Below are positions 1,354 to 19,109 of a stretch of 32,000 nt of DNA, one piece after another. The first letter of the stretch is position 1. Each line of letters begins with the position of its first letter. The stretch covers positions 90,001 to 122,000 of the forward strand of contig JAUYHT010000002.1 of assembly GCA_030688545.1 (NCBI GenBank), written 5' to 3'. A program made the translations under genes and the position numbers. Under the pieces are notes generated by a model. That model worked only from the letters and a program-made list of their open reading frames with translations. It was not told the DNA's origin and did no database searches. Source of the stretch: Candidatus Iainarchaeum sp. (GTDB lineage: Archaea > Iainarchaeota > Iainarchaeia > Iainarchaeales > VGJJ01).

Positions 1354-2331
1354 TCAAAACCGCATGACATCCTGGATAGCGGCATAGATGCGGTCGGCGT
1401 GGGGGATGAAGTGCTCTTCATTCTTGAGCAGGGGCATGATGGTGTCAAATCCGGTGACGCGGCGCACGGGAGCTTCTAATGACAGGAGATCATTCTCAAG
1501 AATGCGGGCCATGACCTCGGAGGCCAACCCCAATGTCTGGGGGGCTTCCTGGGCGATGACACAGCGACCGGTTTTCCGTACACTTTTATGGATGATATCC
1601 CAGTCAATGGGAGAAAGGGTGCGGAGATCAATGAGTTCAATGGACCATTTCTCATTCTGGGAAATGGTTTCCAATGCTTCCTTACACGCTAGGGTCATGG
1701 TGCCCCAGGTGATGAGGGTAATATCTTCCCCAGGTTGACGGATGAATGCTTCCCCGAGGGGAGTGGCATACTGTTCCTCGGGCACCTCTTCCTTGAAAGC
1801 TCGGTAGAGACGCAGGGGCTCTAGAAATATCACGGGATCCTTCTCCCGCATGGATGAGGTCAACAAACCTTTAGCATCCGTGGGAGTGGAGGGCATCACC
1901 ACTTTCAACCCAGGAGTATGGATGTAGTAGGCTTCCGAACTCTCAGAATGGTGCTCGGGCGCTTTCACCCCACCCGAACAGGGGGTGCGCACCACTAATG
2001 GGCAGGAAAATCGTCCCCGGGAACGGTTGCGGATGCGAGATGCGTGGGAAATGAGCTGATTCAAACCCGGATACATGAAACCAGAGAACTGCACCTCCGC
2101 CACGGGGTGCAAACCATACGCAGCCATCCCAATGCCTAACCCAATGATTCCCGCTTCCGCGAGGGGGGTATCAAATACGCGGTGGGAACCATGCTTGGCC
2201 TGCAACCCATCGGTTACCCTAAAAACGCCCCCATCCTTTCCCACGTCCTCCCCATACACCACTAAATCAGGATTAGATTGGAGCTCGAGGTCCATCGCCT
2301 GATTGAGGGCTTGGATCATGTTGACCTTCAT
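1354..2331 (-). CDS. 2-oxoacid dehydrogenase E1 component, beta subunit
   Basis: 325 aa. Typical E1-beta N-terminus (MIQALNQAMDLELQSNPDLVVYGEDVGKDGGVFRVTDGLQAKHG..RVFDTPLAEAGIIG) and transketolase-like C-terminal domain. Start ATG overlaps the E1-alpha stop (ATGA, 2328-2331). Confidence 0.9.
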   Translation of the reverse strand: MKVNMIQALNQAMDLELQSNPDLVVYGEDVGKDGGVFRVTDGLQAKHGSHRVFDTPLAEAGIIGLGIGMAAYGLHPVAEVQFSGFMYPGLNQLISHASRIRNRSRGRFSCPLVVRTPCSGGVKAPEHHSESSEAYYIHTPGLKVVMPSTPTDAKGLLTSSMREKDPVIFLEPLRLYRAFKEEVPEEQYATPLGEAFIRQPGEDITLITWGTMTLACKEALETISQNEKWSIELIDLRTLSPIDWDIIHKSVRKTGRCVIAQEAPQTLGLASEVMARILENDLLSLEAPVRRVTGFDTIMPLLKNEEHFIPHADRIYAAIQDVMRF

Positions 2332-3446
2332 GGGAATCCCGGTCCTATCGTGTCGGGTTGATTTTCCTTTCCATGAGTTTGTCGGAAACCCACATAGGCG
2401 CGTTTCTGTTCCGCCAAATCCTTAGGAGTAATAGCATACATGTGGTCGAAAAGATCCTCTATTTTTTGTGGGGGCATGGTTTCATACGCTTGCACCGCCT
2501 TTTCCACTTTCGCAACGGCTTCCTGCTTGATCTGGTCGATGAGGGATGGGGAAAGAATGCCTTTGGCGAGAAGAAATGTTTCAAAACGAGCAATAGGATC
2601 CTTGGCCCGCCAAGCCGCTATTTCTTCTTTTGTTCGATACCGCGTGGAATCATCCGCGGTGGTATGGTCACCTATACGGTAAGTTTCAAATTCAAGGAAA
2701 GTAGGTCCTTTTCCCGAAATGGCTTTTTCGCGCGCGATCGAGGTGGCCAAATAGCAGGCCAACACATCATTCCCATCCACTTGCAATCCTTCGATGCCAT
2801 ACGCAATCGCTTTCTGCGCGAGGGTCTGCGCGGCCGTCTGGTTTTTTCGCGCCACGGAGATGGCATATTGATTGTTCTGACATATGAGAATGACAGGAGC
2901 ATTGAACACCCCTGCCGCGTTCATGGCCTCATGAAATTCTCCCTCGCTCGTGCCCCCATCCCCCATATAACCCACGGCGACCGCATCCCTTTTTTTGTAT
3001 TTCATCCCTAGCGCGCACCCCACCGCGTGCAAGGGCTGGGACCCCACCGGAATGGAAACGGGAAAACAGTTCTGCCCCTCTCCCGGGTCCGAACCCCGTT
3101 CGTCGCCTCCCCAATACTGTAATGTCTTCACCATTTCCACGCCCCGGGTGAAAAATACCCCATGTTCTCTAAATGCGGGGAATGTCCAATCCTGGTTTTT
3201 TAGGGCGAAGGCACTTCCCACGGTACAGGCCTCTTGACCTAAGCTTGAGGCGTACGTCCCAATACGTCCCTGGCGCTGGAGCTTGAGGGCCTTGTCATCA
3301 AAAATGCGGAGCTGGAGCATGTGAATATACAAGGCTATCAGCTGGGGCGGGGTCAAGGGAGGCAACAATTTCTCGTCAGCCTTCCCATTCTCATCCAGGA
3401 TGGACAATCTGTTCACCCCGAATTGGGCGATTTGGGTCAGGGGCAT
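2328..3446 (-). CDS. 2-oxoacid dehydrogenase E1 component, alpha subunit (TPP-dependent)
   Basis: 372 aa. TPP-binding region GDGGTSEGEFHEAMNAAGVFNAPVILICQNNQYAIS. First gene of the E1alpha-E1beta pair. TATA TTTAAATA on the minus strand at 3468-3475, about 25 nt upstream of the ATG. Confidence 0.9.
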   Translation of the reverse strand: MPLTQIAQFGVNRLSILDENGKADEKLLPPLTPPQLIALYIHMLQLRIFDDKALKLQRQGRIGTYASSLGQEACTVGSAFALKNQDWTFPAFREHGVFFTRGVEMVKTLQYWGGDERGSDPGEGQNCFPVSIPVGSQPLHAVGCALGMKYKKRDAVAVGYMGDGGTSEGEFHEAMNAAGVFNAPVILICQNNQYAISVARKNQTAAQTLAQKAIAYGIEGLQVDGNDVLACYLATSIAREKAISGKGPTFLEFETYRIGDHTTADDSTRYRTKEEIAAWRAKDPIARFETFLLAKGILSPSLIDQIKQEAVAKVEKAVQAYETMPPQKIEDLFDHMYAITPKDLAEQKRAYVGFRQTHGKENQPDTIGPGFP

Positions 3447-3467
3447 GGGCAGGAAATGAAACTGGAT

Positions 3468-3475
3468 TATTTAAA
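3468..3475 (-). promoter_or_regulatory. TATA box (TTTAAATA on the minus strand) for the E1alpha-E1beta unit
   Basis: Centre about 25 nt upstream of ATG 3446. Confidence 0.5.
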
Positions 3476-3558
3476 CCACTCCCAATCGCTTGGCTCTATA
3501 GGAAAAGGCTGGGTTTTTCCCCCAACTCACTCTACCTCCCGACGTGGCGTTCGAACGG

Positions 3559-3567
3559 TTTTATTAA
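3559..3567 (+). promoter_or_regulatory. TATA-like box TTTTATTAA for the aminopeptidase gene
   Basis: Centre about 29 nt upstream of ATG 3592. Confidence 0.45.
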
Positions 3568-3591
3568 GGGATTTTCCTTCCTGGGGAAAGA

Positions 3592-6075
3592 ATGCACCGA
3601 CACCTCTTCGAGGGAATGAATGGAATGTCCTGCCATTTTCAGGTAGGGGGGGAGGATTCCCGCTTCCTGGCGCCGGATGCCAAACCCCAGTATGCGGAGG
3701 ACCGGGGGTTTATTCCCACGCATATCGACCTCTCCCTGAGTGTGGACATAAAGAAGCAGCACGTGCGGGGAGAGGTGAAAACGAAGGTGGAATTATTCCC
3801 CCATTCCAAGGAAATGATTTTTCACGCGGTGGAGATGACCATCCATTCCGTAAAAGTAAATGGGAAAAAATCCCCGTACGACTATGATAAGGAAAAAATC
3901 ACCATCCCCCGGGGAAAACTGGCGGGAAAGGGAGTGGTGGCGATCGCCTTCGAATACACTCATCCTCCCATGGGGATGCACTTCATCCACCCCACCAAAG
4001 ACCGGCCGGACAAACCCTATCAGGTGTGGACCCATTCCGAAGCCCAGGAGGCGCGGTACTGGTATCCGTGCCAGGATTTGCCTGAAACCAAATGCCCCAT
4101 CACCCAACGCATCACGGTGGAATCCCCATTTCAGGTGGTGGGAAATGGGAATCTCATCTCAACCAAAAAAGAAAATGGATGGATCACCTACACCTGGGAT
4201 TTCCCCCACCCCAATCCCTCCTACCTCAATGCCATCATGATTGGGGAATTCGACGTCATTCGGGAAAAATGGAAACACGTGGACATCGCCTACTATTTCA
4301 GGAAAGGGAAGGAAAAGGAAGCCCGTAATGGCTTCAAGAACACCCCCCAGTGCCTCGCGTTCTTCTCGGAATACACGGGGTTCGAATACCCTCACAACAA
4401 ATATGCACAAGTGGGAGTGGCGGATTTTATCTATGGCGGGATGGAGCACACCACCTGCACCACGATGACGGACAACATCCTTCAGGATGATATTATTCAT
4501 GCGGAATTCGATGCCCGCCCCCAACAACTGATTGCCCACGAGCTCGCGCACCAGTGGTTCGGCGATCTCCTCACGTGCAAGGATTGGTCGCACGGCTGGC
4601 TGAACGAGGGATTCGCCACCTTCTTCGAGATGCTGTGGCAGGAACATAGAAACAAGGACGAAGGGCGGTATGCCTTCTACCAGGACATCCAAATCTATCT
4701 CCAGGAGGATAAAGACCTTTACCGCCGCCCCATCGTGAGCAAGTTATACCAGAATCCCTCCGACCTGTTCGACGAACATCTGTATGCGAAAGGGGGTATT
4801 ATTCTCCATTACCTCCGCTACTACCTGGGGGAAAAAGCGTTCCGAGAGGGAATATCGCATTACCTCCATAAGCACGCGCACACCACGGTGCAGACGGAAG
4901 ACCTGCTCAACGCGTTCCGCGAGAAGACGGGGAAAAACCTAACTTTGTTCTTTGACCAATGGATTTACGCCGCTGGATTTCCCGAGCTGCGCATCTCCAT
5001 GCATGCCCAAGGTAAAAAAGCGATGGTGCGGGTGGTGCAGGTGCAGAAAGGAAATGATAATCCCTTGTACGATTTCGATGTGGATATCGGAGTATACTAC
5101 GGAAACCACCAGGTGAAAGTGGAACGCCACCGCATCCACCGGAAGGAACACCGCTTCACCATCCCAGTGGGAGGAAAAATCCATAATATCGTTTGGGACA
5201 ACGCCTACGCGGTGTTGGAAAACGCTCCCCAGCGGAAATCTCGGGAAATGTGGCGCTACCAAGCTCTCCACGATCTGCATGTCCTTCACCGCATCGACGC
5301 GGCGAAAGAATTGGCAATCATGGGGGGACCGGAAGAACTGGGGGTTTTGAAGGAAGTGCTGCATCACGACCCCTTCTGGGGAGTCCGCGCAGAGGCCGCG
5401 TTGGCATTAGGCAACATCCCCAATACCCGGGCAGCGGAGATCCTCATCCATGCTTATGACACGGAGAAAAACCACCGCGTCCTCAAGAACATCCTGGGGG
5501 GATTGGGAACCCATTCCCTTCCCGAAGCCCGCGAAGTACTTCTGCGAGGAATCCAGAGGGAAGACTCCTACCTCATTCCCATGCAGGCGTATGCTTCCCT
5601 GGGAAAACACAAGCACCCGGCCAATTGGGCGGTGCTCATGGAAGGGCTTAAACGGGAATCCTGGATGGACATCGTGCGAACAGGATGTGCGATTGGCATT
5701 TCAAATTTCCAGGACGGGCGCGCCCTCAAGATATTGGATGGGCTCATGCACCCCCGTTATTCCAATGAATTGAGGCAGAATGTCATCCGCAGTCTCGAGA
5801 TAGGAGGAAAAGGGTATGAGAAAACCTATGCAATGGTGGAAAAAGCGCTGAAGGACCCCTACATCAACCTCCAACTGGATGGGCTAACCATTCTCGGCAA
5901 GATCGGGGACGAGCGCCATCTCCCCATCCTCCGGGAATTCCAGAAGGGTCACCGGGATTCACGGCTGAAACGGAAAGCCATGGAAAGCATCCGGATGATC
6001 GATGGGGGATTGGACCTGCCCACATTCAAACCTGAAAAAGTTCCTTTGGTCAGGGCAGGAAAAGAGACCAAATGA
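3592..6075 (+). CDS. M1-family zinc aminopeptidase with C-terminal HEAT (PBS-lyase-type) repeats
   Basis: 827 aa. GGMEHTT (GxMEN-type exopeptidase motif) and HELAHQWFGDLLTCKDWSHGWLNEGFATF (HExxH-x18-E). The C-terminal ~270 aa carry repeats of the type DPFWGVRAEAALALGNI. The start could also be Met9 or Met12. Confidence 0.85.
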   Translation: MHRHLFEGMNGMSCHFQVGGEDSRFLAPDAKPQYAEDRGFIPTHIDLSLSVDIKKQHVRGEVKTKVELFPHSKEMIFHAVEMTIHSVKVNGKKSPYDYDKEKITIPRGKLAGKGVVAIAFEYTHPPMGMHFIHPTKDRPDKPYQVWTHSEAQEARYWYPCQDLPETKCPITQRITVESPFQVVGNGNLISTKKENGWITYTWDFPHPNPSYLNAIMIGEFDVIREKWKHVDIAYYFRKGKEKEARNGFKNTPQCLAFFSEYTGFEYPHNKYAQVGVADFIYGGMEHTTCTTMTDNILQDDIIHAEFDARPQQLIAHELAHQWFGDLLTCKDWSHGWLNEGFATFFEMLWQEHRNKDEGRYAFYQDIQIYLQEDKDLYRRPIVSKLYQNPSDLFDEHLYAKGGIILHYLRYYLGEKAFREGISHYLHKHAHTTVQTEDLLNAFREKTGKNLTLFFDQWIYAAGFPELRISMHAQGKKAMVRVVQVQKGNDNPLYDFDVDIGVYYGNHQVKVERHRIHRKEHRFTIPVGGKIHNIVWDNAYAVLENAPQRKSREMWRYQALHDLHVLHRIDAAKELAIMGGPEELGVLKEVLHHDPFWGVRAEAALALGNIPNTRAAEILIHAYDTEKNHRVLKNILGGLGTHSLPEAREVLLRGIQREDSYLIPMQAYASLGKHKHPANWAVLMEGLKRESWMDIVRTGCAIGISNFQDGRALKILDGLMHPRYSNELRQNVIRSLEIGGKGYEKTYAMVEKALKDPYINLQLDGLTILGKIGDERHLPILREFQKGHRDSRLKRKAMESIRMIDGGLDLPTFKPEKVPLVRAGKETK

Positions 6076-6157
6076 TGACTCGTCAGATTCTGGAATAAAT
6101 TTATTTGTATGAGTCGATTCACTTGAATTAAAATTGAAATGGATCAAAGAGGAACAA

Positions 6158-6307
6158 ATGGTTAAAAAAATAAATGATTTGTACCAGTGCGTGGCATGTG
6201 AATTGCTTTACAAAGAAAAAGGAATCGCGGAATCATGTCAATCATGGTGCCAGACCCACCACTCCTGCAATCTCCAAATAATCCAGTTGGCTGTAAAGAA
6301 AGAATAA
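6158..6307 (+). CDS. small Cys-rich (putative zinc-binding) protein, 49 aa
   Basis: Below the ORF-track size cutoff. Hand translation: MVKKINDLYQCVACELLYKEKGIAESCQSWCQTHHSCNLQIIQLAVKKE. It has CxxC, then CxxxC, then HHxC. An A/T box GAATTAAAATTG (6125-6136) lies about 27 nt upstream, and AGAGGA lies 5 nt upstream of the ATG. Confidence 0.4.
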   Translation: MVKKINDLYQCVACELLYKEKGIAESCQSWCQTHHSCNLQIIQLAVKKE

Positions 6308-6406
6308 CCGACGCGGCTTAAACGCGAGTATGTTCTATTCAGAAATGTAAATCACCCTTATAATGGAAATATGAACCTTTTTCGTCGGCCTTTTTTATGA
6401 AAAATG

Positions 6407-6422
6407 GGGGGCTAAAGCCCCC
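6407..6422. other. GC hairpin GGGGGC-TAAA-GCCCCC in the AT-rich spacer upstream of the CDPS gene
   Basis: Perfect 6-bp G/C stem with a 4-nt loop, preceded by a T6 tract (6391-6396). Function unknown. Confidence 0.4.
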
Positions 6423-6457
6423 AAGGCATTAGAGAATGAGGGAAGGGGCCAGTTAGA

Positions 6458-6469
6458 AATAATTAAATA
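6458..6469 (+). promoter_or_regulatory. TATA-like box AATAATTAAATA for the CDPS gene
   Basis: Centre about 27 nt upstream of ATG 6491. Confidence 0.5.
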
Positions 6470-6490
6470 GGATAGTTTGATTCATCCAAG

Positions 6491-7177
6491 ATGAAAGTAA
6501 AATTGTATAATATTACCCCAAAAGGCCTGTCGCTGAGACAGCACCACATTTTTATTGGAATCAGCCTTGGAACGGCCAAGAAGTTGACAAAGGATCAGAT
6601 TACCAATTGGATTAATTGGGGTAAATTGTATACTAAGGGGCAAATCGTCTTTTTGATTGCTGATGAGATAGCGCGTTTCAATTACCGCGTTTTTAGCGGT
6701 TATGGAGAAACTAAATCGATTAATCGTGCCTTTAATGAAGGTTTAAAATATGAGAAACTAATTCGAGACATAACCATGGAAAAAGGCATTATGAGAGTAG
6801 GTGTGATTCATTGGAGGGATATTTGGAATAATGAAAAAGAAAAGATTAGATTAGTATTAACAGAGGAATATTGCACAAATGAAAAATTTAGGACTAATAT
6901 TCTTTTTTTCGTTCGCAAATATGTGAAAAATAGGGGAGTTGACCCGGATGAATCGCAACTAGATTATTTGTCACAGTATATTTTGTATGAACTGCCTACA
7001 CTAATGGATGGAATTTCCTATAACCGGACGAAATATTCATTACTACTTTATCCAATCTTCGGGCGCAGCAGCGGAATGAGTGAATTTGTTGTTGGTCTCA
7101 AAAAGAGTTTTCCAAATCTCAATAAAAAGTTAACCCCTTACATTCAGATTCCTTTAGTCGAAACCAACATCGAATGA
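6491..7177 (+). CDS. tRNA-dependent cyclodipeptide synthase (CDPS, AlbC family; XYP subtype by motif)
   Basis: 228 aa. HHIFIGISLGT matches AlbC HALIGISAGN (Ser25 = AlbC Ser37). QYILYELP matches AlbC NYVLAEAP (Tyr163/Glu167 = Tyr178/Glu182). LLLYP has Tyr187 exactly 20 residues after the Glu, as AlbC Tyr202. Thr at the N40-equivalent position plus Tyr-Pro indicates the XYP subtype. Size is typical of CDPSs. Own TATA (6458-6469) and T6 terminator (7182-7187). Confidence 0.7.
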   Translation: MKVKLYNITPKGLSLRQHHIFIGISLGTAKKLTKDQITNWINWGKLYTKGQIVFLIADEIARFNYRVFSGYGETKSINRAFNEGLKYEKLIRDITMEKGIMRVGVIHWRDIWNNEKEKIRLVLTEEYCTNEKFRTNILFFVRKYVKNRGVDPDESQLDYLSQYILYELPTLMDGISYNRTKYSLLLYPIFGRSSGMSEFVVGLKKSFPNLNKKLTPYIQIPLVETNIE

Positions 7178-7181
7178 ACCC

Positions 7182-7187
7182 TTTTTT
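7182..7187 (+). terminator. oligo-T tract after the CDPS stop
   Basis: T6 begins 5 nt after TGA (7175-7177). Archaeal termination typically uses oligo-T. Confidence 0.4.
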
Positions 7188-7276
7188 ACAAGTAAATACG
7201 ATGCTGTATTATTCCTTACAAAAGAGGATTTACTGCTATCAACTATACGCCTGGAGGACATTATTTTACTCTTGGA

Positions 7277-8131
7277 TTAGTTTCTATATTGAATAAATAG
7301 TTCGCCCGCCTTATAGGAACTCCTCACCAGGGGTCCCGCCGCTACGAAAGTGAAACCCATGGCGCGAGCCTCTTTTTCAAGGGTAGCAAATCTTTCTGCG
7401 GAAGCATACTCAACGACCGGAAGGTGCCAAAGGGAGGGTTGCAGGTACTGGCCCAGGGTGAGCATGTTCACGCCGTGTGAACGCAAGTCGCGCAGGGTGG
7501 AAATCACCTGATCATCGGTTTCCCCATGACCCAATTGGATGGATGTTTTAGTGTAAGCCATTCCTTTCTTCCTTGCATAGGCGAGCACGCGCAAGCTCTG
7601 GGCATACGAGGCCCTGGCATCTCTTACTTTTCCCTGAAGGGATTCAACCGTCTCGATGTTGTGCGCGAATACCGTGGGTTTGGATGCGAGAACAATGTCG
7701 ATCAAGTCTTCCCGACCCTGGAAATCCCCTACTAAAGCTTCGACGGGAAAACCATTCTGTTTCAAAGCCGAGATGCACGCCGCGACGTGATGCGCGCCCT
7801 GATCGGGAAGATCATCCCGGTTGACCATGGTGAGAACCACATACTTCAGGCCCATCTGCTTGGCAGCCCGCACCAAATTCCCAGGCTCATTCGCATCCAC
7901 CCCATCCCCGATCGCCGCCGCCCTTATCTGACAGAATTTACACCCCCGCGTGCAGGTCTTTCCTAAAACCATGAACGTGGCCGTTCCCGCGGACCAGCAT
8001 TCGCTCTGATTGGGGCAATGGGCTTCCTGGCAAACCGTCGGTAACATCAAATCGGAAGTAATACTTTTCAAACGCTGAAATTGCTCCGAGGAGGGGGGGC
8101 GAATGCGGGGCTTTTGAGGTGGGAAAGTCAT
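7277..8131 (-). CDS. lipA: lipoyl synthase (radical SAM)
   Basis: VCQEAHCPNQSECW (auxiliary cluster Cys motif) and CTRGCKFCQI (CxxxCxxC radical-SAM motif). The track ORF begins at a TTG (8137). The first ATG is at 8131, with a TATA-like box (8153-8161, minus strand) about 26 nt upstream. Confidence 0.9.
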   Translation of the reverse strand: MTFPPQKPRIRPPSSEQFQRLKSITSDLMLPTVCQEAHCPNQSECWSAGTATFMVLGKTCTRGCKFCQIRAAAIGDGVDANEPGNLVRAAKQMGLKYVVLTMVNRDDLPDQGAHHVAACISALKQNGFPVEALVGDFQGREDLIDIVLASKPTVFAHNIETVESLQGKVRDARASYAQSLRVLAYARKKGMAYTKTSIQLGHGETDDQVISTLRDLRSHGVNMLTLGQYLQPSLWHLPVVEYASAERFATLEKEARAMGFTFVAAGPLVRSSYKAGELFIQYRN

Positions 8132-8183
8132 AGCCAAAAAATCATTTTCCCCAATTTAAACGAATTGGGAAACATTATTGTTT

Positions 8184-8612
8184 TCAGGAATGGATAGGGT
8201 TCATCCGGATCTCAATCCCATCAAAACACGTATATGGAAACACTTTTCGATTGGATTTGCGGACATCGATCATACGCATGCTCCGCAATACCTGCAAATC
8301 CCTACTGATCGCCTCCTGTTTTCGGTCTAATTTTCTGGCGATCTCTCCTACCGATTGCTCCTGGCCCTGGTTGTGGGAATCAATTAAAAATTTCAATAAG
8401 TCCAATCGGCTCGCGGAAAGTGCTTTGAACAATTGGGAGTAAGATTGGACGTAAAGGATATTATCGGGTTGCCGCATCCCTTTTTTAGGATTATCCAGAA
8501 AGGAGTCCAAATCCCCTTTCATGTCGCCTCCTATGAAAATAGTCAATTTTTCATCCTTTTTCCGTTTGCTGAAAGCCATACTTCTATCATCCCCATTAAC
8601 CGCAAGCACCAC
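8184..8612 (-). CDS. winged-helix DNA-binding protein (COG4190-like putative transcriptional regulator)
   Basis: 142 aa. ILYVQSYSQLFKALSASRLDLLKFLIDS...QSVGEIARKLDRKQEAISRDLQVLRSMRMIDV fits a wHTH preceded by a short beta region. The track start is GTG at 8612. An ATATATAA box (about 8631-8641) lies 24 nt upstream. Alternative ATG at 8579. Confidence 0.6.
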   Translation of the reverse strand: MVLAVNGDDRSMAFSKRKKDEKLTIFIGGDMKGDLDSFLDNPKKGMRQPDNILYVQSYSQLFKALSASRLDLLKFLIDSHNQGQEQSVGEIARKLDRKQEAISRDLQVLRSMRMIDVRKSNRKVFPYTCFDGIEIRMNPIHS

Positions 8613-9684: not shown

Positions 9685-10608
9685 TCATCCCACTTTAGGA
9701 GCGGCGTAATAGATTTTTTTGGGAGCATTACTGGCCAACCATTCCCCCACCTGGTCGCGCAATGGTCGAGAGCGGGAAAAGAAGCCCTTGAAAAGATTGG
9801 TGTAGGCCTCGATGATGAAAGGGGAATCCATCTTGAGGACGAGGATCTGGTCCTTCACGTAGATAGTGGAGATAACCGTTTGATTGGTTATCACCATATG
9901 ATTGGCGGCCACATCAGGGATGATGTTGATCTGAATGCGATGCTGTTCCATGTGAGTAAAAATCTTTTCCAATTGCTTTTCGAGGTAAGGGCGGCCATAC
10001 CGTTCCTGGAGGGCGGATAAGTAATTGTGCAGGGTGTATTCGGATAGTACATGTTGCTCGTCGGGGCACTTGCCTAAGTGTTTCCACATGAGCGCCCGGT
10101 TGGAGGTCTTCTCGGGAGTGGGAACATAATTAGGAGTAACGGCCTGGAGAATGCGGAGGGATTCTTCCTCATCCTGATCCAGGAAAATAAGAGGGTACGC
10201 GGTGCCCACATCAATATGGTAACAGTAATCCGCCCCTGAAATCCAGGAGACGTATTGGGATTTGTATTGGGCCATGTTGGTGATGATATGCACATACGGC
10301 CGTGCTTCGGTTGACAATGCTTCGAGGATGGATTGCTTCCTGTACACCAAGCGCTGATTCTCACGATCTAAAAATTCGGACACGCGCTCGTCCCAGGGCT
10401 TACTGGTATACGTGCGGGGGTTGCCGCGATGGACCACCAGGCCTTTCTCCTCCAACTCCTGCAATACCGAATAGATTCGACCCATGGGGACCTTGGAGGC
10501 ACGGCTCAACCGCTTCACTGAAAAAGAGCCTTCTTTTAGGAGGGCAAGGAGTTTGACCTCATTGTCGGAGAGGCCGAATTGCTTCTGGAGCTCCATCACC
10601 ACATGCAT
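9685..10608 (-). CDS. TrmB-family transcriptional regulator
   Basis: N-terminal GLSDNEVKLLALLKEGSFSVKRLSRASKVPMGRIYSVLQELEEKGLVV is a TrmB-type wHTH. The ~200-aa C-terminal domain is not recognised. TATA-like box (10633-10642, minus strand) about 29 nt upstream. Confidence 0.75.
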   Translation of the reverse strand: MHVVMELQKQFGLSDNEVKLLALLKEGSFSVKRLSRASKVPMGRIYSVLQELEEKGLVVHRGNPRTYTSKPWDERVSEFLDRENQRLVYRKQSILEALSTEARPYVHIITNMAQYKSQYVSWISGADYCYHIDVGTAYPLIFLDQDEEESLRILQAVTPNYVPTPEKTSNRALMWKHLGKCPDEQHVLSEYTLHNYLSALQERYGRPYLEKQLEKIFTHMEQHRIQINIIPDVAANHMVITNQTVISTIYVKDQILVLKMDSPFIIEAYTNLFKGFFSRSRPLRDQVGEWLASNAPKKIYYAAPKVG

Positions 10609-13681: not shown

Positions 13682-13794
13682 CACATTCCTATGTGGTGGG
13701 AGGTTGATAACTTGCACACGCCTAAATGGCCATAAAAATAGAAAAAAATGAGAATATAGAGTACTCTATTAAACCAAAAAGGAATTTTCTAACC

Positions 13795-14184
13795 ATGAAA
13801 TTGACAAAAGAGGACAAAAAATTGATTGCTCGGGCGAAAATTCTTGTCCGGCCAAAAAAAGTGAGTGGAGGCATTATCAAGGAAGTTGGTGCCGCACTCC
13901 TTTCTATGAAAGGAAAAATTTTTACGGGAACAAGTTTAGACCTTGGCTGTGGAATTGGATTTTGCGCAGAACATTCCGCCATCGCCAATATGATTTCTCA
14001 TACTGATGAAACCCAAATTAAGACCATCGTGGCTGTGGGAGGGGAGAAAGTGATATACCCTTGTGGCCGTTGCAGAGAAATAATGAGATTGATAGATAAG
14101 AGAAATTATAGGAAAACGAATGTGATAATTTCTGAAAAAAAGAAAGTTAAACTAATTGATCTGTTGCCTGGAGAATGGATGTGA
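13795..14184 (+). CDS. cytidine deaminase-fold zinc enzyme, blasticidin-S-deaminase-like
   Basis: CAEHSAI (CAE zinc/catalytic motif) and PCGRCRE (PCxxC). Overall collinear with fungal BSD: LTxEDxxLIxRA...GxIFTG...CAE...IVAxG...PCGRCR...LLP. I start at Met24 (ATG 13795). A/T box CTATTAAACC (13766-13775) lies about 25 nt upstream. Confidence 0.75.
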   Translation: MKLTKEDKKLIARAKILVRPKKVSGGIIKEVGAALLSMKGKIFTGTSLDLGCGIGFCAEHSAIANMISHTDETQIKTIVAVGGEKVIYPCGRCREIMRLIDKRNYRKTNVIISEKKKVKLIDLLPGEWM

Positions 14185-14186
14185 AT

Positions 14187-14414
14187 TTAATTCGCCAATA
14201 AATAAATGACCATCAACACAAACGCCGTGCCCCAAAAAAGAGTCCAAAATGTTTGGTACTTCTTTCCCGACCAATTGGGCCAATAATTGATTTTCCGAAC
14301 CAAAAATATATTTTCCTTCCCGAAAAAATAAACCAGATGGATCGACCAATCGTATAAAATCATGAGTGTTACGAATACTGGGATCCAATAAACCATGAGA
14401 CTGAAATCAAACAT
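14187..14414 (-). CDS. small membrane protein (two predicted TM helices), third gene of the ImmA-DUF4411 operon
   Basis: MFDFSLMVYWIPVFVTLMILYDW...FWTLFWGTAFVLMVIYLLAN. ATG at 14414 is preceded by AAGGGTGATATC, a GGTGAT Shine-Dalgarno-like element. It lies 26 nt after the DUF4411 stop. The track start (GTG 14453) overlaps the upstream gene. Confidence 0.45.
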   Translation of the reverse strand: MFDFSLMVYWIPVFVTLMILYDWSIHLVYFFGKENIFLVRKINYWPNWSGKKYQTFWTLFWGTAFVLMVIYLLAN

Positions 14415-14440
14415 GATATCACCCTTGGTATTAGAATTTT

Positions 14441-14926
14441 TTAAAACTTCCACTCCTCATTCCTAAACAATCCGACTATATCCACGGCCTCGATCCCGAA
14501 TTTTTGACAAATAAAGGGGATCCGTACGCGGTCGCCACGCAACCGCTCCTCTGTGACAACTATTTGCTTAATTGAAATCAGTCGGGATTGATCTTTAAGT
14601 TCAATAGCCAATGCGACAATCCAAGGATCGGCACAGTAGTCACTCGATTCATCCAGAAGGGAGGGATACTTGTGCAATATTTTTTTCACTATTTCAATCT
14701 GTTTTTCTGTTTGTTTTTTGAACATTGATTTACACTTCTTGGCCCAATCCAATAGTTGATCATCTCCTTGATTAATCTCTTCAAGCACCTCCATCGGAGC
14801 CACTAATCTTTCTTTATGAGCCAATTTTGCCATTTTCTCCCAAATGCTTGGAAATACATCCATCGGGTTCCGCCGATTCAAGGTTATTAAAGAAGAACTA
14901 TCAACTATATAGCAGTCTGATTTCAT
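14441..14926 (-). CDS. DUF4411-family PIN-like protein (putative nuclease/toxin)
   Basis: 161 aa. N-terminal YIVDSSSLITL (PIN-type acidic beta-strand), DQLLDWAKK, CADPWIVALAIE, IVVTEE, and RIPFICQKFGIEAVDIVGLF fit the DUF4411 consensus as I remember it. The ATGA overlap with the upstream ImmA gene indicates translational coupling. Confidence 0.75.
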   Translation of the reverse strand: MKSDCYIVDSSSLITLNRRNPMDVFPSIWEKMAKLAHKERLVAPMEVLEEINQGDDQLLDWAKKCKSMFKKQTEKQIEIVKKILHKYPSLLDESSDYCADPWIVALAIELKDQSRLISIKQIVVTEERLRGDRVRIPFICQKFGIEAVDIVGLFRNEEWKF

Positions 14927-16077
14927 AATTTTGCCTTAGAAAGAACCCTTTCAAAAGATTTCGATTTGATTGACAAATAGTTCAGAGCATCGGAGTAAGT
15001 TATATAATCACGATCGAAATTGTTGGCAACCAGTGATACGAACTTGCCGCCCACCTCGGCTAGGCACTTTTTGTCTGATGGCATGCCAGCCATTTTCCTT
15101 CCTTTTTTATTCTTGATAAGTGACATTTTTATTTTGAATCTCCCAAAAATTTCATCAAATTGCGTTTTACTAATAAATTTTCCTTTCAGCATCGTTACTA
15201 ATAGAAGTGCTTTACTCACTTTGAAATGAGATGACAATTTGTTGAGGTATTTCGTTTCGGTCAATGAATCACGATTTTTTTCAAATAGTCCTTTCGAAAT
15301 AAGATTTGGCAGCAAAAATGAGGCGGCAAATCGATTACACCAGGATTCTATAGAATTGTGATCATTTTGGGTAACATCTGGAAGGTCTATCGCTGATTCC
15401 CCTAACAAGATATGTCCAAATTCATGCATGAGTGAAAATAATCGGGCTTCAATTGTATCTTTTGTACTAACCGTAATTACTATAGGGTTTTCATCTAATA
15501 GGACAAAACCCCGTGCGTCTTCAACAGGCATTGGAAGCTGCAGGATAAGAATGTTCAAACCTTCCAGGTTTTCGCGCAAATAGCCAAAAAACGCATATGG
15601 TGTTTTGAATTTAGTCTGCTTTTCCTCGGATAATGAAAACCTTTCACGATAGTATAGTGCTAGATTTTCTGGACTTAAGGATAAATCGATTCGCTCAATT
15701 TTCGATTTGGTCGACCTATCAATATTGGTCAAGAGAATTCGGCCGATCGTTTGAATTTTTCGTGCTTTTCTGATTGCGAAGATAGTTTTTGTGTCAAATA
15801 CCCCTGCCTTTTCAGGCAACATGCGATAATCTTTAGGCAATGGTTTTTCGATCTTCGGTGACGATAACAAAAAGGATGCCACGGGGCGCTTGTAAGCGAC
15901 CGCAAGTATTTTTATTTGCCTGAAACTGATTTCCTTTTTTCCGCCTTCAAACTCTTCAACTATTTCAATTGGCAGGCCCAGTTTTTCCGCTATCATCTCC
16001 TTTGACCAGCCCGCACTCTCGCGCAACCATTTGAAAACCGATGGTTTTACCGTCGTGGTCAGGGTTCTCATAGGCAT
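14923..16077 (-). CDS. XRE-type HTH fused to ImmA/IrrE (COG2856, DUF955) zinc metallopeptidase
   Basis: 384 aa. N-terminal HTH (FKWLRESAGWSKEMIAEKLGLPIEIVEEFEGGKKEISFRQIKILAVAYK). HEFGHILL (HExxH) followed by ESWCNRFAASFLLP, the typical ImmA/IrrE signature. Confidence 0.85.
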   Translation of the reverse strand: MPMRTLTTTVKPSVFKWLRESAGWSKEMIAEKLGLPIEIVEEFEGGKKEISFRQIKILAVAYKRPVASFLLSSPKIEKPLPKDYRMLPEKAGVFDTKTIFAIRKARKIQTIGRILLTNIDRSTKSKIERIDLSLSPENLALYYRERFSLSEEKQTKFKTPYAFFGYLRENLEGLNILILQLPMPVEDARGFVLLDENPIVITVSTKDTIEARLFSLMHEFGHILLGESAIDLPDVTQNDHNSIESWCNRFAASFLLPNLISKGLFEKNRDSLTETKYLNKLSSHFKVSKALLLVTMLKGKFISKTQFDEIFGRFKIKMSLIKNKKGRKMAGMPSDKKCLAEVGGKFVSLVANNFDRDYITYSDALNYLSIKSKSFERVLSKAKL

Positions 16078-18121: not shown

Positions 18122-18232
18122 TTCCCATTCTGCCTTTCTCATACATTCCCGCTCTTCCCGCCAAACAAAATACCCATTTAAAACCCTTATCCGGCGTGGT
18201 TCGTCTGTTTCCGGAAGGAAAACAGGTCAGAT

Positions 18233-18304
18233 GCCCCGTTAGCTCAGTGGTAGAGCGCCCGGCTGTTAACCGGTAGGTCGGTGGTTCAAGTCCACCACGG
18301 GGCG
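18233..18304 (+). tRNA. tRNA-Asn (anticodon GTT)
   Basis: Hand-folded cloverleaf. Acceptor GCCCCGT/ACGGGGC, D arm GCTC-AGTGGTA-GAGC, anticodon arm CCCGG-CTGTTAA-CCGGT (C27-U43 mismatch), variable AGGTC, T arm GGTGG-TTCAAGT-CCACC, discriminator G. No encoded CCA. T-run follows. Confidence 0.95.
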
Positions 18305-18422
18305 TGTTTTATTGAGTGTATGAATCGCATTTTTTCAGTGGTAGAAAAATGATTGTAATTGGACGCATATTAGATAGAATTAAAATGGCCCCTTTTTTTA
18401 ATCGAATAGAAGGGATCCAGTA

Positions 18423-19109
18423 ATGGGACGTCGAAAGCGATACCGATCAAAATCCTTTGATTTTCTTTCTCGCAAATATGATATTATTCTTATTTTAATA
18501 TTCATGGCAATCGCATCAATTTATTTGTTCGCAGCAGGAATGTATTTACCGGCTTTAATTATTGGGGCCATTCCCGTAATGTATTTGCATATAAAAACTA
18601 ATTATTTAAATTTATTATTTGCATTTTTATCTGAAATGATAGATGAATTAAAAATTACTTTTGGGATTGATAAAAACCATGATGAAAAAACTATTGAGAT
18701 AGTAAGGTATTTGAAATCTTTTCGTACCAATAGGATAATTCATAATGAATTCGAAATACAATTGGCACTGGAAGTTTATTTGAAAAACAAATATCAAATT
18801 TTTTCAGAATTTAGGACAAAACGCGGGGAATCAATAGATTTTATTATAAATAAAAAATATGCAATTGAAGTTAAAATAGCTAAATCAAACAACACGTTAA
18901 GAAATTTAATTTCTCAAATAGAAGAGTACATGATGGAATATCCAAGATTGATTGTTTTCATTTATGATTATGGTGCCCCAGTGGATTTGAATTATTATGC
19001 CTCTAGGATAAAAGAAAAAGGGGCCAATGTCATTATTTGCAAGGGTAGATTTACCTCAAACGATTTAGATAGGAGAGAGGATAAATATGGAGTATTATAT
19101 TCTCGATAG
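18423..19109 (+). CDS. membrane-anchored protein with C-terminal PD-(D/E)xK nuclease-like core
   Basis: 228 aa. Basic N-terminus MGRRKRYRSK, then about 2-3 TM helices (ILILIFMAIASIYLFAAGMYLPALIIGAIPVMYL). The C-terminal domain has EFEIQLALEVYL...GESIDFIINKKYAIEVKIAK (D-x10-E-x-K) and a downstream Q (LISQIEEY). T/A box (18393-18402) lies about 26 nt upstream of the ATG. Confidence 0.55.
   Translation: MGRRKRYRSKSFDFLSRKYDIILILIFMAIASIYLFAAGMYLPALIIGAIPVMYLHIKTNYLNLLFAFLSEMIDELKITFGIDKNHDEKTIEIVRYLKSFRTNRIIHNEFEIQLALEVYLKNKYQIFSEFRTKRGESIDFIINKKYAIEVKIAKSNNTLRNLISQIEEYMMEYPRLIVFIYDYGAPVDLNYYASRIKEKGANVIICKGRFTSNDLDRREDKYGVLYSR

Follow-up and report, generated by a model that had tools for sequence, protein, structure and literature searches.

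A solo XYP-type cyclodipeptide synthase gene, probably acquired horizontally, in an AT-rich islet of a Candidatus Iainarchaeum chromosome

We analyzed a 32,000-nucleotide (nt) stretch of DNA from Candidatus Iainarchaeum sp., referred to here as the window, in which an earlier note made from the sequence alone had proposed a tRNA-dependent cyclodipeptide synthase (CDPS) gene. The gene is an open reading frame (ORF) located in an AT-rich islet between the genes for an M1-family aminopeptidase and lipoyl synthase (LipA). This arrangement had been proposed in the note, and matches to Pfam Peptidase_M1 and NCBIfam TIGR00510 confirmed the identity of both neighbors. The remaining host genes considered here encode the alpha and beta subunits of pyruvate dehydrogenase (PDH) E1, archaeal FEN1, PAN, FtsZ, a Hef-like helicase/ERCC4 protein, and TFB. 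These neighbors, notably archaeal FEN1, PAN, and TFB, confirm that the window is part of an archaeal chromosome, as the note had assumed and as the NCBI label Candidatus Diapherotrites archaeon indicates. The coordinates of all features are collected in Table 1.

The 228-aa ORF belongs to the CDPS family, an assignment that we regard as practically beyond doubt. It scored above the curated cut-offs of both family models, Pfam PF16715 (40 bits over residues 16-188 versus a gathering threshold of 27; E 4.7e-10) and NCBIfam TIGR04539, tRNA-dependent cyclodipeptide synthase (55.9 bits versus a cut-off of 45). A phmmer search of all PDB chains with the single sequence returned CDPS chains as the sole matches, with ParcuCDPS at an E value of 4.6e-11. 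When a family profile derived from a 22-sequence alignment was compared with PDB, ParcuCDPS (7QB8 and its mutants) was matched at an E value of approximately 2e-36, followed by several other solved CDPSs. In the same alignment, the first residues of the homologs (residue 1) coincide with the N-terminus of the ORF product. An AlphaFold2 model that used this alignment as input reached a mean predicted local distance difference test (pLDDT) score of 92.3 and a predicted template modeling (TM) score of 0.89. Compared with PDB by Foldseek, this model displayed the Rossmann fold, resembling that of class-I aminoacyl-tRNA synthetases, that the note had anticipated. The top 50 matches were all CDPSs, with TM-scores from 0.60 to 0.74, of which ParcuCDPS was the best (0.74) and AlbC scored 0.61 (E 9e-7).

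The identity of the protein as a CDPS is not new. An identical NCBI entry (MDP2666061.1; 100%), which derives from a 418,565-bp contig, had already been named correctly by the annotation pipeline as 'MAG: tRNA-dependent cyclodipeptide synthase [Candidatus Diapherotrites archaeon]', where MAG stands for metagenome-assembled genome. CDPSs, their XYP subfamily, and their mechanism are likewise well established; the window protein is a new, divergent, and uncharacterized member. Database searching yielded 51 homologs, the best of which, beyond the match to itself, was 49% identical.

The four motifs by which the gene had been recognized, HHIFIGISLGT, YILYELP, LLLYP, and VFLIADEIARF, are each present in the translation. 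The residues S25, D58, Y163, and E167 do not vary across the 22 aligned sequences, and conservation of Y187 and P188 is 90% or higher. S25, Y163, E167, and Y187 are the equivalents of S37, Y178, E182, and Y202 in AlbC, for which residue numbering and roles, also those of N40 and H203, have been described (PMC5935735). In the alignment to ParcuCDPS, S25, located within the sequence GIS, corresponds to S26, while Y163, E167, and Y187 correspond to Y167, E171, and Y191. D58 is aligned to D58 of ParcuCDPS, a residue whose mutation abolishes activity (PMC7613923). From the fold match and the way in which they align with solved CDPSs, the four catalytic residues are predicted to cluster in one pocket. 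The claim that their spacing is identical to that of AlbC was partly upheld: the local distances agree (three residues from Ser to position 40, four from Tyr to Glu, and 20 from Glu to the second Tyr), but the distance from Ser to the first Tyr is 138 residues, compared to 141 in AlbC.

In AlbC numbering, the XYP subfamily is defined by a nonconserved residue at position 40, Tyr at 202, and Pro at 203 (PMC7613923). The corresponding residues of the window protein are Thr28 (S25 + 3), Tyr187, and Pro188, whereas the NYH subfamily is defined by N40 and H203. The best matches of the family profile were also XYP enzymes, with E values of 2e-36 for ParcuCDPS and 1e-5 for Fdum-CDPS (5ocd), compared to 2e-3 and 1e-2 for the NYH enzymes YvmC and AlbC, respectively. 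Fold TM-scores alone did not separate the two subfamilies. By its sequence signature, the window protein is thus a member of the XYP subfamily, as had been proposed. The accompanying term AlbC-type applies to CDPSs at large and is otherwise loose. AlbC, an NYH enzyme, is a distant relative: it was not matched by phmmer at E ≤ 10 and reached an E value of 0.0099 with the family profile.

The base composition of the CDPS gene sets it apart from the host genes. Its G+C content is 35.5%, and the G+C content at third codon positions (GC3) is 0.367, compared to 51 to 55% and 0.58 to 0.72, respectively, for host genes; the M1 aminopeptidase gene, for instance, has a G+C content of 53% and a GC3 of 67%. 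In 400-nt windows across the ORF region, the G+C content ranged from 33.5 to 40%, and it switched abruptly at both islet borders. The contrast described earlier is therefore real, but the hand-counted figures were too extreme, at 25 to 35% for the gene and 55 to 65% for its flanks. Of the 13 codons for Arg, 3 are AGA and 6 are AGR, compared to 4% and 15% in host genes (n = 16). AGA is enriched relative to the host, yet Arg is not often AGA, as had been stated. Scored alongside 16 host-type genes, the CDPS gene had the second most atypical codon usage, with a score of 1.198 at the top of the host range.

Table 1. Positions of the CDPS gene, its key codons, and surrounding features in the window
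Feature	Position	Strand	Remarks
M1-family aminopeptidase, C-terminal HEAT repeats	3592..6075	+	Left boundary, outside the insertion; Peptidase_M1 E 3e-54
AT-rich islet, almost certainly inserted	6076..7276	.	1201 nt, 36% G+C, between the convergent M1 aminopeptidase and lipA stops; contains CDPS gene and one small ORFan
Small Cys-rich ORF	6134..6307	+	57 aa if the longest ORF is taken; 49 aa in the NCBI annotation, in agreement with a start at 6158
TATA-like A/T box AAATAATTAAATA	6457..6469	+	22-34 nt 5' of ATG; candidate promoter
CDPS gene	6491..7177	+	ATG-started ORF, 228 aa
CDPS codon S25	6563-6565	+	
CDPS codon T28	6572-6574	+	
CDPS codon D58	6662-6664	+	
CDPS codon Y163	6977-6979	+	
CDPS codon E167	6989-6991	+	
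CDPS codons Y187-P188	7049-7054	+	
T6 run	7182..7187	+	5 nt 3' of stop codon; candidate archaeal oligo-T terminator
Lipoyl synthase LipA	7277..8137	-	Right boundary; TIGR00510 330 bits versus cut-off 310; 54% G+C

The islet is almost certainly an insertion. A metagenome scan with LipA identified two syntenic relatives that lack it, L028 and L029. In L029, the gene order is PAN-FEN1-lipA-M1 peptidase-E1alpha-E1beta, the proteins are 49 to 74% identical to those of the window, and no gene is located between lipA and the M1 peptidase gene; the LipA of L028 is 76% identical to that of the window. The stop codons of lipA and the peptidase gene are approximately 30 nt apart in L029 and approximately 7 nt apart in L028, compared to 1,201 nt in the window.

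The nearest homologs of the CDPS, at 49% identity, were found in Woesearchaeota and Pacearchaeota MAGs, in loci with G+C contents of 30 to 33%. In 97 of 100 bootstraps of a neighbor-joining tree of 75 sequences, the window protein grouped with Woesearchaeota and Pacearchaeota CDPSs, to the exclusion of all bacterial-labeled sequences. Ca. Forterrea, which carries no lineage label among the related loci and which we take to be a Diapherotrites-type DPANN archaeon related to the host, has a CDPS that is just 27% identical. If this kinship is assumed, the gene phylogeny in the tree is apparently incongruent with the host lineage. In the homolog loci, the CDPS gene is located beside integrases, TnpB, toxin-antitoxin, or restriction-modification genes or in a cluster resembling a conjugative element. 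By analogy, such mobile surroundings are plausible vehicles of transfer.

Several of these loci contain further genes of interest. In L001 to L003, which harbor 48%-identical homologs, a DUF3419/S-adenosylmethionine-methyltransferase-like ORF of 271 aa (L001:4950-5765) lies 5' of the CDPS gene on the same strand. A tyrosine recombinase is located directly 3' of the CDPS gene and is followed by an IS605-type TnpB (L001:6922-7464 and L008:6847-7683), and ParE, HEPN/NTase pairs, or a BsaWI-like restriction-modification system occur near 48%-identical homologs. The CDPS P0031 (L004:1-12708, also L005) is encoded within a cluster resembling a conjugative or integrative element, which comprises an integrase, an excisionase-like helix-turn-helix (HTH) protein (HTH_17), Replic_Relax, two DUF87/HerA-TraG-like ATPases, an N6/N4 methylase, and a GNAT protein.

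The composition, the empty sites in L028 and L029, and the phylogenetic affinity together indicate horizontal acquisition from a low-G+C DPANN donor. Acquisition itself, which the earlier note had considered probable, is strongly supported by composition, codon usage, empty sites, and phylogenetic placement. According to the tree, the donor was most probably a Woesearchaeota/Pacearchaeota-like lineage of low G+C content; that it is a low-G+C DPANN lineage is supported, and no close representative of it has been sampled so far. The gene would thus have reached a Diapherotrites-type DPANN archaeon as a 1.2-kb low-G+C insertion between the convergent M1 aminopeptidase and lipA genes. Overall, we consider the gene to encode a functional, horizontally acquired CDPS of the XYP subfamily, with a probability of about 80%.

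The gene stands alone. Pfam and NCBIfam scans of 27 of the larger ORFs of the 32-kb window revealed no tailoring enzyme, whether cyclodipeptide oxidase, P450, methyltransferase, 2-oxoglutarate-dependent oxygenase, or prenyltransferase, in agreement with the earlier observation that none of the first three is adjacent. To compare neighborhoods, ORFs within 5 kb of the CDPS gene were clustered all-against-all across 28 loci. No neighbor family was conserved beyond closely related contigs, and the only recurrent neighbors were local to single lineages: an integrase in five closely related loci and a SET-domain ORF in three. The latter ORF comprises approximately 155 aa (Pfam E values between 1e-9 and 1e-13), and its start coincides with the stop codon of the CDPS gene or the ORF overlaps that codon (L019:5677-6132, L022:3197-3685, and L024:2664-3140). 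One of the three loci is labeled Patescibacteria, one Saccharibacteria, and one Woesearchaeota, and the SET-domain ORF is a possible methyltransferase partner in a sub-clade spanning both bacteria and archaea. There is no SET-domain ORF beside the CDPS gene of the window.

The activity, product, expression, and biological role of the window CDPS are inferred. In the ping-pong mechanism described for AlbC (PMC5935735), transferred by homology to the window enzyme, a first aminoacyl-tRNA would donate its aminoacyl group to Ser25, with the side chain accommodated in pocket P1. Asp58 would be required for Ser activation, as in ParcuCDPS, and Tyr163 and Glu167 would anchor the aminoacyl group. Attack on a second aminoacyl-tRNA, held in pocket P2, would yield a dipeptidyl-enzyme, from which a 2,5-diketopiperazine would be released by intramolecular cyclization upon proton relay through Tyr187. 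With no tailoring gene in the vicinity, the pathway would end in an unmodified cyclodipeptide.

To compare substrate pockets, the P1 and P2 positions of Gondry et al. (2018, PMC5816076) were mapped onto the window protein via the alignment to ParcuCDPS. This procedure reproduced exactly the published ParcuCDPS motifs GAYAWELY (P1; G22/A24/Y55/A57/W112/E174/L175/Y189) and FEWKYTR (P2; F144/E147/W148/K151/Y193/T195/R196), which validates the alignment register. The P1 motif of the window CDPS reads FGLAWTLL (F21/G23/L55/A57/W108/T170/L171/L185). As this pocket is fully hydrophobic, Phe or another large hydrophobic residue is predicted as the first residue of the product. The motif is identical in seven of eight positions to FGLAWSLL, for which P1 = Phe and P2 = Phe/Tyr are given (PMC5816076), a Table 2 row that we assigned to CDPS 91 on the basis of its product labels and the order of the rows. 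This enzyme from Methylovulum miyakonense belongs to the XYP subfamily and synthesizes cFF (51%), cFY (36%), and cFL (8%) (Gondry et al. 2018, PMC5816076). The two P1 motifs differ by a conservative S/T exchange, and both enzymes have Tyr at position 3 of P2. Elsewhere, their P2 motifs differ, LNYSTYA in CDPS 91 versus FKYNI.. in the window, which comprises F140/K143/Y144/N147/I189 and two uncertain loop positions. FGLAWSLL was not encountered among the aligned representatives of the family (the best 150 of the family search plus earlier hits), so CDPS 91 and the window CDPS are probably not close relatives.

The comparison with ParcuCDPS is informative on the substrate as well. ParcuCDPS (CDPS 90) of Parcubacteria bacterium RAAC4_OD1_1 (PDB 7QB8) synthesizes cyclo(His-Pro) and cyclo(His-Glu). 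It is the closest solved structure to the window CDPS by both sequence and fold, shares the XYP signature and the S/D/Y/E/Y-P catalytic set, including the essential D58, and is of similar length (230 versus 228 aa). Both hosts belong to ultra-small lineages with reduced genomes. However, the two proteins are just 22 to 26% identical (approximate values), residue X40 is Asn in ParcuCDPS and Thr in the window CDPS, and the host of ParcuCDPS is a bacterium of the candidate phyla radiation (CPR), whereas that of the window CDPS is an archaeon. The His-recognizing residues Y55, E174, and Y189 are replaced by L55, T170, and L185 in the window CDPS; His is therefore not expected as its substrate. Hydrophobic substitutions at these three positions of ParcuCDPS shifted its specificity to Leu/Phe (PMC7613923). 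From the pocket residues, we tentatively suggest a cyclodipeptide containing Phe or another hydrophobic residue as the product, a prediction to which we assign slightly less than even odds.

Several observations weigh against the reading of the gene as a functional, acquired XYP enzyme with a predictable product. Between the window CDPS and the nearest relative known, identity is just 49%, and the protein and its immediate clade are uncharacterized. Similar P1 motifs can accompany different specificities (PMC5816076). Among characterized motifs, the P2 motif has no match, and a one-residue insertion in the G191/R192 region affects the loop that contributes P2 residues, so that the second residue cannot be predicted. 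In the crude neighbor-joining tree, P0031 is the exact sister of the window CDPS with a bootstrap support of just 27%. Statistically, the candidate promoter and terminator do not stand out. With respect to the mechanism of insertion, the islet contains no integrase or transposase, its borders display only imperfect repeats of 10 to 19 nt, at chance level, in place of att-like direct or terminal inverted repeats, and no tRNA gene is located at the borders, the nearest being 11 kb off.

One alternative is that the gene is an idle passenger, an intact-looking recent arrival that is unexpressed or useless in its host and heading for decay. The GC3 of 0.37, almost unameliorated relative to approximately 0.63 in the host, does suggest a recent arrival. 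The islet contains neither a regulator nor partner genes, the co-inserted ORF is an ORFan, the transcription signals are indistinct as described above, and several other low-G+C accessory islets are present in the window. However, the reading frame is full length, the catalytic and pocket residues are all conserved, and the structural model is very confident. Moreover, a solo arrangement is the norm in the clade, so the missing partners are no sign of decay. We therefore leave this explanation a small share of the probability, larger than that of any other alternative.

Markedly less probable is that the CDPS fold performs other chemistry, such as aminoacyl transfer from tRNA to another acceptor or the release of a linear dipeptide. 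Such a deviation is conceivable in a DPANN clade whose members are all uncharacterized, and some XYP enzymes gave no detected product in Escherichia coli (PMC5816076). It is contradicted by the conservation of the cyclization Tyr (Y187) and of the whole S/Y/E/Y set, as well as by the synthesis of cyclodipeptides by the nearest characterized relative, ParcuCDPS.

An ancestral gene that was lost independently in relatives, with a low G+C content resulting from local constraints, would also account for the empty sites. The flanking proteins of the relatives with empty sites are just 49 to 76% identical to those of the window, and deletions there are possible. This explanation nevertheless requires two independent, precise deletions that left junctions of 7 to 30 nt. 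In addition, the GC3 and codon usage of the islet are foreign and match those of homolog-bearing loci, and the protein nests among Woesearchaeota and Pacearchaeota sequences at a distance from the Ca. Forterrea CDPS, which makes an ancestral origin very improbable.

We consider it about as improbable that the CDPS is no true orphan and cooperates with the adjacent M1 aminopeptidase, be it in diketopiperazine tailoring or hydrolysis or in dipeptide supply. The suggestion derives from a cluster of 12 leukotriene-A4-hydrolase-like (M1 family) ORFs that recur near CDPSs (Skinnider et al. 2018, PMC5767969), and the window peptidase matched a leukotriene A4 hydrolase model with an E value of 1e-44, albeit below the cut-off of the model. 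Yet the peptidase gene is host-like in composition and adjoins lipA in CDPS-less relatives, which implies that its adjacency to the CDPS gene arose by insertion. No M1 peptidase was found near the CDPS gene in 27 of 27 other loci, and in the window the two genes are separated by an ORF and an intergenic region. A functional link between them is unlikely.

Finally, an assembly or binning artifact, in which low-G+C DNA was joined chimerically into a higher-G+C contig, is suggested by the metagenomic origin of the genome and the abrupt borders, but it is hardly credible for a 1.2-kb segment that lies amid host genes, flanked on either side by an intact stop codon, within a contig of 418 kb, with similar low-G+C accessory islets elsewhere in the window, and the need for a double chimeric junction within 1.2 kb.

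The gene is thus best regarded as an acquired and probably functional CDPS gene, and its closest counterparts are the CDPSs of Woesearchaeota and Pacearchaeota (e.g., MDP4039026.1; L010 to L012). These are 49% identical to the window CDPS over the full length and share with it FGLAWTLL as P1 motif, a residue other than Asn at position 40, the solo arrangement, and a DPANN host. They differ in P2, where N147 and I189 of the window CDPS correspond to K and T, and the window CDPS has one additional loop residue. Their genomes have G+C contents of 30 to 33%, compared to 53% in the host of the window CDPS. AlbC of Streptomyces noursei (PDB 3OQV/4Q24) shares with the window CDPS the fold and the S/Y/E/Y catalytic residues. 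As an NYH enzyme, it has N40 and H203 in place of T28 and P188, and the sequence similarity is marginal. The albC gene clusters with those of the cyclodipeptide oxidase AlbA/AlbB, in contrast to the solo gene of the window.

To survey the wider family, 1.84 billion cluster representatives were scanned with HMMER. At a limit of E ≤ 1e-3, 759 clusters matched, and at E ≤ 1e-30 the number was 115, with the window protein representing its own 50% cluster. In an alignment of approximately 168 full-length representatives, composed of the best 150 of the family search and earlier hits, the pattern S-x-D-Y-E-Y-P recurs. Many variants occur at these seven positions, which are those of catalysis and of subfamily definition, SNDYEYP and SVDYEYP being the two most frequent. 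Among P1 motifs, FGLAWTLL occurs most often in this alignment. Of 18 related loci in species-representative genomes, 15 derive from DPANN or CPR/Patescibacteria bins. The labels comprise eight Woesearchaeota, two Pacearchaeota, two Nanoarchaeota, Ca. Forterrea, two Saccharibacteria, and one Patescibacteria, with further single bins of Gammaproteobacteria, Victivallales, and Methanosarcinales. At L007, a homolog of approximately 33% identity (P0050) is located among bacterial-type genes, including sigma-70, DNA polymerase III alpha, and RecG. The related CDPS genes are always solo and often located beside the mobile-element, toxin-antitoxin, or restriction-modification genes mentioned above. 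The clade is concentrated in the ultra-small DPANN and CPR lineages.

The notion that archaeal CDPSs are sporadic, which the earlier note repeated, therefore applies to the literature but not to the databases, which contain a whole clade dominated by DPANN and CPR. One metagenomic archaeal XYP sequence, AQS34941, was noted in 2018 with its specificity unassigned (Gondry et al. 2018, PMC5816076). In the full-text literature search, nothing relevant to CDPSs in DPANN or CPR was found beyond that study and the use of ParcuCDPS as an enzyme, and no characterized archaeal CDPS was found. It is conceivable, although we would not expect it, that these stand-alone XYP CDPSs form a large clade, mainly of the host-dependent DPANN and CPR lineages, that is passed between these lineages as mobile single-gene cargo of integrative elements and whose untailored products act in interactions between episymbionts and hosts or among symbionts. 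Signaling, host manipulation, or antagonism as roles for these cyclodipeptides are speculation. If true, this scenario would account for the retention, despite genome reduction, of an enzyme that depletes charged tRNAs.

Taken alone, the gene of the window has modest stakes, as a divergent archaeal XYP CDPS (49% identity or lower) with a clean, datable insertion scar. The wider DPANN/CPR pattern is more interesting than the single gene. The product of one member would be the first from an archaeal CDPS, would test whether the P1-motif rules derived from bacteria can be transferred to archaea, and would raise the question of what role diketopiperazines have for episymbionts.

Besides the CDPS gene, the islet contains few recognizable features. 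The small ORF matched only itself in the database ('hypothetical protein Q8P05_00985'), apart from a weak, sub-threshold match to DUF7128 in Pfam, and no homolog was found in any of the other CDPS loci; it was consequently rejected as a CDPS partner. The TATA-like box and oligo-T run that the earlier note had assigned to the CDPS gene are both present, and the position of the candidate TATA box is compatible with a leaderless archaeal transcript. However, the 1.2-kb islet contains 12 A/T runs of at least 8 nt and seven T runs of at least 5 nt, and both elements are therefore weak evidence. In the otherwise AT-rich DNA that separates the small ORF from the CDPS gene, a GC-rich hairpin, TGGGGGGCTAAAGCCCCCA (6405-6423), is flanked by T runs on the plus strand and was scored as terminator-like on the minus strand. 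A structured RNA in the islet was dismissed, as no Rfam match at E ≤ 1, including the hairpin, was obtained in 5900-7400. A 17-nt imperfect inverted repeat (6484-6500/7261-7277; 82% complementary) brackets the CDPS ORF almost exactly, but, according to a rough estimate, chance alone would give approximately 10 pairs of this kind in 2 kb of AT-rich sequence, and it was not accepted as a terminal repeat. The window and the homolog loci rich in mobile elements have no gene in common other than the CDPS gene. Carriage by a virus or plasmid was also rejected, given that no CDPS relative was found in IMG/VR viral contigs or PLSDB plasmids, and searches of PHROGs and PADLOC gave no meaningful match for either the CDPS or the small ORF.

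The surroundings of the islet have been rearranged as well. In most of the more distant relatives (L030 to L073), the PDH E1 alpha and beta genes come directly after lipA (compare 1354-8137 in the window). Solely the window, L028, and L029 have the M1 aminopeptidase gene between lipA and the E1 genes, each time on the opposite strand, which marks the peptidase gene itself as an older insertion or rearrangement in this lineage. In the window, an ArsR/HVO_A0114-like HTH gene (8184-8612; G+C 0.44) is located between lipA and FEN1, and a TrmB-like regulator (9685-10608) between FEN1 and PAN. Neither was matched by tblastn in L029, where the respective gaps are approximately 40 and 380 nt. The lipA-FEN1-PAN neighborhood has taken up several extra genes.

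Two further low-G+C regions were observed in the window. The first (13726-16077; G+C 0.37 to 0.40), between an M50 peptidase gene and FtsZ, comprises a cytidine/dCMP-deaminase-like ORF (13726-14184), a DUF4411 ORF (14441-14926), and an ORF with HTH and M78/IrrE peptidase domains (14923-16077), which matched several PADLOC RmrA and CapP models. This islet looks like an acquired toxin-antitoxin or defense module. The second is the ORF at 18423-19109, which has the lowest G+C content measured in the window (0.288). Being 228 aa in length and of low G+C content, it was considered as a second CDPS copy, but it is unrelated (BLASTP E 2.7) and gave only a weak, sub-threshold match to DpnII/MboI restriction endonucleases. 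It begins 118 nt 3' of the only tRNA gene of the window, tRNA-Asn (18232-18305), and may be the remnant of a tRNA-targeted insertion.

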